This document shows, one piece after another, positions 34,565-51,547 of a DNA stretch of 64,000 nucleotides. The notes under the pieces were generated by a model. The model ran no database searches. It was not told where the DNA came from and was given only the letters and a program-made list of their open reading frames with translations. The stretch is from a phage: sequence record PZ402301.1; one strand, given 5' to 3'. Position numbers and translations under genes: made by a program. The number at the start of each line of letters is the position of its first letter. Within the stretch, counting starts at the first letter, position 1.

Positions 34565-34591
34565 AATAAAAAAGGACTCCCGAAGGAGTCC
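34565..34591 (-). terminator. rho-independent terminator (minus strand): GGACUCC-UUCG-GGAGUCC followed by U-run
   Basis: 7-bp stem, UUCG loop, then UUUUUUAUUUU on the minus transcript; 6 nt after stop of the small basic ORF. Confidence 0.65.
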
Positions 34592-34596
34592 TCAAC

Positions 34597-34773
34597 TTAT
34601 GCTTTCTGCTTACCAAAACGAGAAGCATCATCTCGAAGAACCGCACGTGCTCGGCGCATGATCTTCTCAACAGTTTGATTGATACGAGAGTTCGACCCAC
34701 GCTTGTAACCAGCGCGTTTAGAATCACCAACTTTCTTTTCAACTGCTTTCTTTGCTTTAGCTTGTTTTGCCAT
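34597..34773 (-). CDS. very basic small protein (58 aa from the internal ATG; ORF-track version is 72 aa to 34815)
   Basis: MAKQAKAKKAVEKKVGDSKRAGYKRGSNSRINQTVEKIMRRARAVLRDDASRFGKQKA, Lys/Arg-rich; start choice uncertain; overlapping 84-aa ORF in another frame judged spurious. Confidence 0.45.
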   Translation of the reverse strand: MAKQAKAKKAVEKKVGDSKRAGYKRGSNSRINQTVEKIMRRARAVLRDDASRFGKQKA

Positions 34774-34967
34774 TATAAATTCTCTTTTAAATGAAAATGC
34801 AGGACTTATTGGCATTGCCTGCGAAAGCCCTCAAGGGGTACTTAGGTTTTGAATATTTACCGACAGGATAACCATAAACCTCGTCAACATTCAAGAGGTA
34901 CACCGTAAAACAAAGTTCGACGGCTCCTCGATTTTAGCTCACACTAAGGCAGTGAATCTCCAATAAA

Positions 34968-35216
34968 TTACTTCAGTGTTACCACAAAGTGACGAACTGC
35001 TTTTCGTGCAGCAGAAGCCAGAGGCTTAGCATATTTAAGTTCATCTTTTTCCTGGAGCTCAGCAGCTAATGCAGTTTGAGCAGGATTCAGATGTTTGAAA
35101 TAACGCAGGATTTCAAGGGCTTCGGCTTCAACATCAATAGATGCGCCATAGTTTTCGTGACCATTATTCCATGCGTTTCGTTGCAGTTCAAGAGCGTGTT
35201 GTAATTGTTTAATCAT
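34968..35216 (-). CDS. rIII: rIII lysis inhibition accessory protein
   Basis: 82 aa as T4 rIII; position next to gene 31. Confidence 0.85.
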   Translation of the reverse strand: MIKQLQHALELQRNAWNNGHENYGASIDVEAEALEILRYFKHLNPAQTALAAELQEKDELKYAKPLASAARKAVRHFVVTLK

Positions 35217-35355
35217 TTAAAAATTCTCGTTAGAGATTAAAACTCGGTAGTCACGTTCTTCTGAATTTCATCTTCTTTCGACAGATCTCTCAGTTGTAGA
35301 CTACCACGTAGAATTGTTCGGTTAACTTATTATTCCGACACCCAATTCATATTAT

Positions 35356-35363
35356 TATTTATA
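35356..35363 (-). promoter_or_regulatory. late promoter box TATAAATA (minus strand) upstream of rIII
   Basis: Plus-strand TATTTATA at 35356-35363, just 3' of gene 31 stop on the minus strand. Confidence 0.4.
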
Positions 35364-51464: not shown

Positions 51465-51547
51465 TTTTATTTCCTTTTTAATTTAATTAACAGTTGGTGC
51501 TATGACGATGTATGACCTCATAGCTGGTCAGTGAGATAATTATAATC
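51465..51547 (-). promoter_or_regulatory. gene 32 leader: autoregulatory translational operator (structured region plus unstructured A/U-rich tract)
   Basis: Minus-strand leader ends ...UUAAAUUAAAAAGGAAAUAAAAAUG, preceded by GC-containing region CUAUGAGGUCAUACAUCGUCAUAGCAC capable of hairpin/pseudoknot, matching the known architecture of the T4 gene 32 operator. Confidence 0.55.

Follow-up and report, generated by a model that had tools for sequence, protein, structure and literature searches.

Compensated RNA modules in the rIII–30.9 gap of a T4-type phage: a candidate structured leader of gene 30.9

Results

The rIII–30.9 locus

The 64,000-nucleotide (nt) stretch of phage DNA analysed here (sequence record PZ402301.1; hereafter the window) carries, on its minus strand, the gene 31 - rIII - 30.9 - 30.8 - 30.7 block of a T4-type phage (Tequatrovirus), and the element in question is the gap between rIII and 30.9 (Table 1). 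A 1-kb stretch of this region shares 99.8% identity with Escherichia phage WL-3 and about 97% with T4, and it has matches in 798 phage records. Comparison with relatives indicates that the gap is a chain of independently folding RNA modules, backed by compensatory base changes, which follow one another along the minus strand as D, a truncated A, B, C and T before the 30.9 initiation region.

A promoter scan found no sigma-70-like promoter within the gap (34774-34967, minus strand), and the sole terminator that a terminator scan called for the rIII-30.9 unit lies 3′ of 30.9, with none internal to the gap. Since no promoter was found in the gap and the only terminator follows 30.9, rIII, the gap and 30.9 are predicted to lie on one bicistronic mRNA. 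A first-pass annotation of the window, made from the letters alone, had placed a strong terminator at the end of a basic open reading frame (ORF), and the scan bears this out: a G+C-rich stem of 9 bp with a T-run behind it is predicted to end the rIII-30.9 transcript. Early-type promoters begin past this terminator, ahead of 30.8 and 30.7. Upstream of rIII, and just upstream of a further module, R, lies TATAAATA (~35355-35362), which we take to be the T4 late-promoter consensus.

Table 1. Features of the rIII–30.9 region of the window and the basis for each
Feature	Position	Strand	Basis
Module R, gene 31-rIII gap: GGUAGUC...GACUACC enclosing CUACAAC...CUGUCGAAAGAAG...GAAGAACGUG	35243..35307	-	homology to hairpins upstream of 30.9
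rIII, upstream cistron, 82 aa (stop codon 34968-34970)	34968..35216	-	ORF list; annotated rIII at the homologous place in T4, T2, RB69
rIII-30.9 gap, non-coding, 194 nt	34774-34967	-	ORF list and comparison with relatives
Module D: UUUAUUGGAGAUU, hairpin CAC-U-GC/CUUA/GU-GUG (34940-34954), AGCUA	34935..34967	-	alignment, covariation
Domain A, truncated	34887..34933	-	covariance model R1: 48.8 bits, E = 4e-10
Module B, predicted H-type pseudoknot	34841..34892	-	covariation of both helices, 17 distinct sequences
Module C, short hairpin GUA-CCC-CUUGA-GGG-CUUUCG	34822..34841	-	sequence itself; thin covariation
Hairpin T: stem GCAGG/CCUGC, 14-nt conserved loop CAAUGCCAAUAAGU (34804-17)	34799..34822	-	alignment
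A/U-rich 30.9 translation initiation region	34774..34798	-	minimum-free-energy folds
Gene 30.9, 58-aa Lys/Arg-rich protein	34597..34773	-	ORF list, protein alignment
Intrinsic terminator GAGGACUCC-UUCG-GGAGUCCUU and U-run	34572..34593	-	terminator scan; annotated terminator in phage G4507

Covariation in the gap

We compared the gap across Tequatrovirus, Mosigvirus, Dhakavirus, Gaprivervirus and Gelderlandvirus, together with 25 IMG/VR loci recovered with the Gp30.9 protein (individual loci are given as L numbers). The first-pass annotation had suggested a structured leader or a small RNA here and had named a lack of conserved structure in homologous regions as evidence to the contrary. The comparison gave the opposite: helices are kept by compensatory changes in hundreds of T4-type genomes in which reading frames are not kept, and covariation is found in A, B and D. 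The folding energy of single sequences is unremarkable (z = -1.3 for the window, -2.35 for T4).

Module B, an H-type pseudoknot as judged by covariation, is present in all 35 complete rIII-30.9 gaps examined and is the only universal module (of 36 distinct gaps, 32 gave B in a pattern scan, inspection added L034, L047 and L053, and L040 is cut by a contig end). Its helix S1 pairs GAC-G-AGG (34879-85) with CCUGUC (34862-67), and its helix S2 pairs loop bases 34870-78 with AACCUAAG (34841-48), of which the window phage forms just GGUU/AACC and two outer pairs. Loop 2 is 2 nt long; loop 3, of 13-14 nt, is A-rich and conserved (GGUAAAUAUUCAAA in the window; conserved form GUUAAAUAUCCAAA). Over the 17 distinct sequences B has a covariation score of 0.359; shuffles score 0.171, none of 500 attaining the observed value, and no slid control exceeds 48% paired. 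Compensated pairs occur in both helices (9-30 UA/AU, 10-29 CG/GC, 20-48 GC/AU).

Domain A in its full form, as in T4, spans about 90 nt and consists of P1 (GAGG/CCUC), P2 (GCCGU/ACGGU), P3, a junction and a hairpin, P4. The window copy is 44 nt shorter: it keeps P1 (34926-29 with 34895-98), P2 (34920-24 with 34902-06) and the base of P3, while the distal 47 model positions, including the conserved junction and P4, are swapped for 3 nt. The same kind of truncation is found in Salmonella phage STML-198. Covariance model R1, built from an alignment of 13 distinct sequences from four phage families, detects this stump as the sole copy in the window. Within the alignment 98.7% of cells are paired, compared with 25-62% in slid controls; 12 of 26 pairs show both-sided changes, and 0/500 shuffles reach the observed value. 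Across the four families the unpaired bases GUCGAA, CUGAU, UAGUUUUA and GUGUACC are invariant while the helices covary. The fold also contains an invariant G-U pair and several U-G pairs; because these would be C-A mismatches on the opposite strand, the fold is strand-specific and points to an RNA of this sense. An IMG/VR search for domain A returned 5 loci, all T4-type, and a metagenome scan returned 2, both Kuravirus-like, which added further compensated variants and no new contexts. CUGAU and CGAA in domain A recall a hammerhead core; a hand check ruled this likeness out, as the elements come in an order that does not match, and Rfam reports nothing.

The stem of module D covaries over six distinct forms (pair 1 CG/UA, pair 2 AU/GC, pair 4 GU/AU/GC). 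The module is optional, being absent from RB69, SSE1 and dhaeg and placed after B in other T4-type phages. A GGAG lies 6 nt past the rIII stop, unpaired and ahead of hairpin D (34955-34961, minus strand), and a second lies within P1 of domain A (34925-34928, minus strand). GGAG is the cleavage motif of the RegB endoribonuclease. RIII has been reported as an inhibitor of RegB activation via ribosomal protein S1 (PMC9409239).

Hairpins C and T account for the complementary GC-rich segments that the first-pass annotation had picked out: CCC (34836-38) pairs with GGG (34828-30) in C, and GCAGG (34818-22) with CCUGC (34799-34803) in T. They are the least informative part of the gap, and pseudoknot B and the domain A stump went unmentioned there. 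The flanks of C, GUA and CUU(G/U), are conserved, and its stem varies (CCUC/GAGG in L042, GCU/AGC in L044); in L041, L049, L050 and L053 C is relocated to just past the rIII stop. The T stem is fully compensated in STML-198 and L052 (AACUGG/CCAGUU, loop unchanged), and in other clades a different hairpin, for example module R, takes the T position. Minimum-free-energy folds also predict a long helix closing the entire element (AUUUAUUGG with CCAAUAAGU). We rejected it as a functional fold because the 5′ arm is missing from RB69, SSE1 and dhaeg, which retain the loop all the same, and because in STML-198 the 3′ partner forms a local hairpin whose stem is fully compensated.

In all gaps compared, a stable hairpin of variable sequence adjoins the 30.9 initiation region. 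Such conservation of function rather than sequence in a G+C-rich hairpin is typical of terminators, and in T4-type sequences the T stem is followed by AUUUUCAUUU. Hairpin T and its U-rich tract might accordingly be read as an attenuator or terminator at which most rIII transcripts stop, with the region serving as a 3′ untranslated region of rIII that guards against exonucleases and 30.9 expressed only by read-through. We regard this as very unlikely: T, with a 5-bp stem and a 14-nt loop, was not called by the terminator scan, the tails in other clades (AAUUAUUACCCUCC, AAAGAUUACUCC) are not U-rich, and the T loop sequence is conserved, which a terminator does not need. Within the initiation region itself, minimum-free-energy folds place UUUUC (34793-97) opposite the Shine-Dalgarno sequence GAGAA (34780-84) in a weak hairpin, and an analogous CUCC...GGAAGA is found in other clades; as modelled, this hairpin can mask the Shine-Dalgarno sequence of 30.9.

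The gap as non-coding sequence and the start of 30.9

The first-pass annotation had described a Lys/Arg-rich ORF of 58-72 aa preceded by about 150 nt with no convincing ORF. The basic ORF is there and its 58-aa form, opened by the internal ATG at 34773-34771, is conserved; the 72-aa reading (34597-34815) is not. Its upstream ATG, which lies in the hairpin T loop, is not found in RB69 and IME08 (CAACGCC instead), and in mogra, RB69 and SSE1 a 1-nt indel puts this position in another frame. The window and T4 gaps differ by indels of 1, 1, 5 and 44 nt, and Salmonella phage GRNsp7 has a further insertion of 153 nt. The only ORFs in the gap, of 38 aa on the minus strand and 26 aa on the plus strand, are both disrupted by the single-base and 5-base indels between window and T4. 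Because indels break the frames and the upstream ATG is not conserved, we conclude that the whole of 34774-34967 is non-coding, which upholds the earlier view of the upstream sequence and lengthens it to 194 nt.

In some records and in UniRef long ORFs are annotated here, so the stretch might instead encode an N-terminal extension of Gp30.9 (72 aa in the window; the 97-aa "11.1 kDa protein" of old T4 entries). With neither the frame nor the start codon conserved through the indels of 1, 5, 44 and 153 nt and the ATG lost in relatives, with the RefSeq records of T4, T2 and RB69 using the 58-59 aa form, and with the protein alignment conserved only from the MAKQ start onward, this is scarcely credible; on these alignments the true start of 30.9 is the ATG of the 58-aa form and the 72-aa reading is spurious. 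Some GenBank entries extend Gp30.9 to 72-102 aa by running into the non-coding RNA, and the protein is often misnamed "1,4-alpha-glucan (glycogen) branching enzyme, GH-13-type" and once "baseplate wedge component and tail pin".

In the non-T4 clades (L034-L052) the last ~35 nt ahead of the 30.9 ATG form a common leader, AUGUAUUUCUCC(A/G)AAAUGGAAGA. It is an in-frame extension in some phages (annotated 68-aa forms MYFSKMEDDKMAKQ...), an 8-codon upstream ORF with its UGA a few bases 5′ of the 30.9 AUG in L042 and STML-198, and out of frame in L047. Its conservation could reflect selection at the RNA level or a coupling mini-ORF.

Mosaic arrangement and additional modules

The 36 distinct rIII-30.9 gaps span 111-470 nt, and their modules are optional and re-ordered: the orders include D-A-B-C-T, A-Y-B-C-T, Z-B-D-X-C-R, C-X-B-hairpin, B-C-T and B-D-X-C-T. 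The regular expressions behind this module map are approximate; they overlook B in L034, L047 and L053 along with some variants of A and X, and one C that they call in the window is false. In the window each module is single-copy.

Module X, of about 135 nt, is absent from the window and T4 and occurs in 408 T4-type records, from phages of Klebsiella, Enterobacter, Edwardsiella, Citrobacter and Escherichia. It sits between domain A and B in many T4-type phages (~1058-1212 of L004, GRNsp7; also L015, L034-L047, L051, L053). Across genera it is 91-95% identical, even where the rIII DNA is merely ~76% identical, as in Citrobacter phage Moon. Of its 38 predicted pairs, 16 show compensatory changes, including a GNRA hairpin, and it has no Rfam match. 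A T-arm-like string on its reverse strand led nowhere, ARAGORN calling no transfer RNA (tRNA) there.

Module R of the window is 85% identical (E = 3e-6) to the hairpin in the T position upstream of 30.9 in L037, L042 and L051. Its outer and inner stems are compensated (GGGAGC/GCUCCC, CCGA/UCGG, AACU/AGUU), and with compensated stems it stands directly upstream of 30.9 in L037, L042, L046 and L051; it is a member of the same class of exchangeable module. Module Y (CUAUCACGCGUCAGAAAAAGGUUAUCUGUCUAAGUCG..) is found in L006 (520-565), L007, L008, L036 and L050, in the last of these inside the hairpin beside the 30.9 start. Module Z (GUACGCCCACCAUGUGUACGCAUGGGUAACGUA) is found in L037-L039 and L045, and a hairpin specific to IME08 occupies the same gap (L010 330-400).

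Spread beyond T4-type phages

Phi92-like phages (Justusliebigvirus) carry the T4 form of the element, 97-98% identical, between tRNA-Gly and tRNA-Gln. The insert comprises 331 nt of a T4-type genome, namely the rIII-30.9 gap and the last 28 codons of rIII (L001 2903-3250 and L002), and is circularly permuted: TTTATTGGAGATT is followed by the element as far as AUAAUG, then by the last 28 codons of rIII with its TAA, and then by TTTATTGGAGATT again, the whole entering the 5′ end of tRNA-Gln and creating a small ORF annotated as Phi92_gp113. The insert is present in 17 records and absent in at least two, and phage cardinal, a phi92-like relative, has an empty site with one copy of the 13-mer (L054 ~340-365). 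Because the insert is flanked by the 13-mer and the empty site has a single copy, the sequences indicate that a T4-derived circle or tandem duplication of 331 nt recombined at this 13-nt microhomology.

Domain A also occurs alone. The rV5-like phages W70, A73 and A5-4 carry a copy immediately 5′ of tRNA genes that is about 80% identical and bears numerous compensatory changes. In SU10-type Kuraviruses (28 records) it is a precise insert of ~92 nt that separates a hypothetical gene from a terminator and precedes the terminase large-subunit gene. At this site (L013 1895-1995, L023 ~395-405 and L024 ~350-400 in the Kuraviruses compared) phiEco32 is empty (GGAAA/GAAGGGG junction) and phage Paul holds an unrelated hairpin of ~50 nt, which marks the intergenic site as an insertion hotspot. 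In W70 and A73 we also noted a clear, unannotated homologue of T4 RNAD (species 2 RNA) downstream of tRNA-Met (L012 2805-2879, L025 1803-1877), in the same tRNA cluster as domain A and about 210 nt downstream of it.

Presence and absence at exact sites would suit selfish or neutral palindromic DNA inserts, spread by illegitimate or microhomology recombination in mixed infections, whose hairpins are kept for the insertion or recombination machinery or for tolerance in transcripts. The filled and empty phi92-like sites and the three states of the Kuravirus site fit this account, as do the loss of the distal part of domain A in the window phage with no obvious harm and the phi92 capture, which is no precise element because it took 85 nt of rIII coding sequence and used the 13-nt microhomology. 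Yet we consider it distinctly unlikely. Domain A is single-copy in each genome and always sense-oriented relative to the surrounding genes, in four independent contexts, and the Kuravirus site shows no terminal repeats or target duplications. Its junction bases stay invariant while the helices covary, which points to selection on a folded RNA rather than on a mere palindrome, and its G-U pairs are strand-specific. One copy per module in 64 kb, a single orientation and no terminal repeats or target duplication likewise rule out a miniature inverted-repeat transposable element (MITE) or a repetitive extragenic palindromic (REP)-like element.

The main alternative is that the modules are stable non-coding RNAs, cut from the rIII-30.9 transcript or from tRNA precursors, that act in trans as decoys or sponges for a host factor or defence. 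It draws on the compensated full domain A next to the tRNA genes of W70, A73 and A5-4, on its place in a 3′ untranslated region before a terminator in SU10-type Kuraviruses and within the tRNA cluster of phi92-like phages, always in sense orientation, and on the free order of the modules. The cross-genus conservation of X, with its covarying pairs and GNRA hairpin, is typical of RNAs with tertiary structure. T4 itself makes stable RNAs of unexplained role, RNAC and RNAD (PMC3014915), and the modules would be freed much as these two are from the tRNA cluster. Weighed against this, B, C and T were never found outside this gap save in the whole-block copy of phi92-like phages, neither processing signals at the flanks nor CCA ends nor promoter/terminator pairs came to light, the window allele of domain A persists in several isolates although it lacks the conserved junction, and the covariance model shows no relation to RNAD. 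We hold this explanation to be possible, if doubtful.

Gp30.9 and database searches

The core of Gp30.9, SKRAGYKRGSN.RINQ...RRARAVLRDD.SRFGKP, is nearly invariant. The protein has matches in 1007 phage records and falls into 68 protein clusters, every organism-named one of which comes from a phage of enteric bacteria. It corresponds to PHROG 1427, a family without assigned function, and has no Pfam family. A profile search of the sequences of solved structures gave only chance matches to SlmA (E = 0.1 or worse). The AlphaFold model is of low confidence (pLDDT 69, pTM 0.37) and shows a disordered, basic, Lys-rich N-terminal tail followed by two helices. The first-pass annotation had likened the basic protein to nucleic-acid-binding peptides, and we consider it plausible that Gp30.9 may bind nucleic acid.

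At permissive E-values, Rfam 15, whose families include riboswitches, small ribozymes, tRNA-like RNAs, Y RNA, 6S and GOLLD/ROOL, gave no family in the gap of the window, T4, GRNsp7, five module-rich loci or SU10; the only match near the gap was Atu_C8 on the 30.9 terminator, at 31 bits against 50. ARAGORN called no tRNA or transfer-messenger RNA (tmRNA) in the window or in the gaps of L004, L006, L007 and L010. The T4 RefSeq record has no annotation at 130541-130784, its 244-nt rIII-30.9 gap. Sensitive blastn of the T4 element and modules X and R against 5,426 complete E. coli genomes gave no match. An exact-string search of a text library with three signature sequences found no paper (a catalogue of 10,006 viral RNA candidates, PMC10690425, which may include some of these motifs, lay outside that check), and nothing specific to these elements was found in the literature on T4, rIII, 30.9, small RNAs and structured-RNA catalogues.

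Discussion

A structured intercistronic leader

Our tentative preference is for a structured intercistronic leader that controls translation or stability of the 30.9 mRNA; Gp30.9 may bind this leader, and A and D would be exchangeable additions to it. The core, a 5′ leader or operator of 30.9, would consist of pseudoknot B, hairpin C and the stable hairpin at the ribosome-binding site, T in the window. Through a bound protein, this core would determine how stable the 30.9 cistron is and how well it is translated, irrespective of rIII. The most plausible ligand would be the very basic Gp30.9 itself, which would make the control autogenous, as with the pseudoknot of T4 gene 32. Modules D and A would be accessory, gained, lost and exchanged horizontally. 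Both the action in cis on 30.9 and the role of Gp30.9 as ligand are inferred. For the window we prefer action in cis because domain A is a mere stump and the remaining D, B, C and T are syntenic and T4-type-specific.

Several observations weigh against a leader of this kind. Helix S2 of B is weak in the window phage and T4, with 4 contiguous pairs (GGUU/AACC). The distance from B to the 30.9 AUG ranges from ~60 to ~380 nt and the order of the modules is shuffled, which would be uncommon in a translational operator. Domain A persists, and perhaps functions, in settings unrelated to 30.9, and the whole T4 element persists in phi92-like tRNA clusters that lack 30.9. Finally, B and 30.9 are confined to one clade, in which co-occurrence cannot be told apart from common descent, and B might just as well be an element at the 3′ end of rIII.

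A bolder proposal, which we think rather unlikely, is that the intergenic regions of 31-rIII-30.9 form an "RNA island" in which cassettes A, B, C, D, R, X, Y and Z are gained, lost and re-ordered, with A moving between unrelated coliphage families, and that as stable RNAs they act in trans, serving for instance as decoys for host defences that target or sense RNA, or soaking up host RNA-binding proteins as sponges. If true, such an island would be the RNA counterpart of the exchangeable accessory-gene regions of phage genomes, and its RNAs would be the first functional small RNAs of T4 other than tRNAs. Neither structured leaders nor small RNAs are new as kinds of RNA in phages, and T4 is the best-studied phage. 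These RNA families, their cassette-like shuffling and their spread across phage families nevertheless appear to be undescribed so far; in a 2010 review, no riboswitch or trans-acting small RNA had been characterised in T4 (PMC3014915).

The analysis defines several structured RNA families with comparative support at the level of base pairs: domain A and pseudoknot B in the 244-nt gap of T4, and X in its relatives. The modules occur in hundreds of sequenced therapeutic and laboratory coliphages. They offer small, testable RNAs for asking what roles non-coding RNAs play in virulent phages and why they lie near tRNA genes. The comparison also puts right a common error in the records, where 30.9 appears as a protein of 72 to 102 aa or as a "glucan branching enzyme".

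Comparison with known systems

Arbiol et al. 2010 reportedly described PeSLs, short intergenic stem-loop cassettes that shuffle among T4-type genomes and whose recombination is said to yield small circles; they are said to be defined by an early promoter with a stem-loop and to be present many times per genome. Such circles would fit the circularly permuted capture in phi92-like phages. Unlike PeSLs, the gap has no promoter, each module is single-copy, and domain A crosses phage families.

GOLLD and ROOL are structured RNAs of phages and prophages, with many helices and often beside tRNA genes, several hundred nt long and of one fixed architecture. The modules described here differ in being 20-150 nt long, optional and re-ordered, a comparison that draws in part on one preprint (bioRxiv 10.1101/2024.12.08.627333).

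RNAC and RNAD of T4, the species 1 and 2 stable RNAs of its tRNA cluster, resemble the modules in being phage-encoded, structured, non-tRNA RNAs co-transcribed with other genes. In contrast to them, the element lies outside the tRNA cluster in the window and T4, with domain A found in tRNA clusters in W70, A73 and phi92-like phages. By eye, domain A and RNAD share a local likeness, G(U/C)CGUCG(G/A)A ... ACGG(C/U)G(C/U)ACC. Homology is not supported: the best hit of R1, run unfiltered on the T4 tRNA region, scored 7.1 bits (E = 1.5) and lay off RNAD, and the predicted helix registers differ.

The leader of rpsO, which encodes ribosomal protein S15, is a pseudoknot operator for a small, basic RNA-binding protein (PMC3014915). 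A related locus scores at chance level against it in Rfam (20.5 bits against a threshold of 39.5, E = 0.49), with no sequence relation.

T4 gene 32 is autoregulated through a leader pseudoknot; its product binds nucleic acid, and the pseudoknot lies tens of nt upstream of an A/U-rich initiation region (PMC3014915). In the window this pseudoknot (CUGACCAGCUAUGAGGUCAUACAUCGUCAUAGC) and the UUAAAUUAAA tract are intact (~51499-51531, minus strand; gene 32 start 51464). B has no sequence similarity to it and differs in its long, A-rich loop 3 (13-14 nt) and 2-nt loop 2. Where gene 32 has an unstructured tract of UUAAA repeats, hairpins C and T separate B from the Shine-Dalgarno sequence and a single UAAAU lies in loop 3, and, unlike in gene 32, B lies at a variable distance from the AUG (60-380 nt). 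What B shares with the gene 32 leader is the arrangement indicated by its two interleaved, covarying helices, an H-type pseudoknot in the 5′ leader of a T4-type gene.

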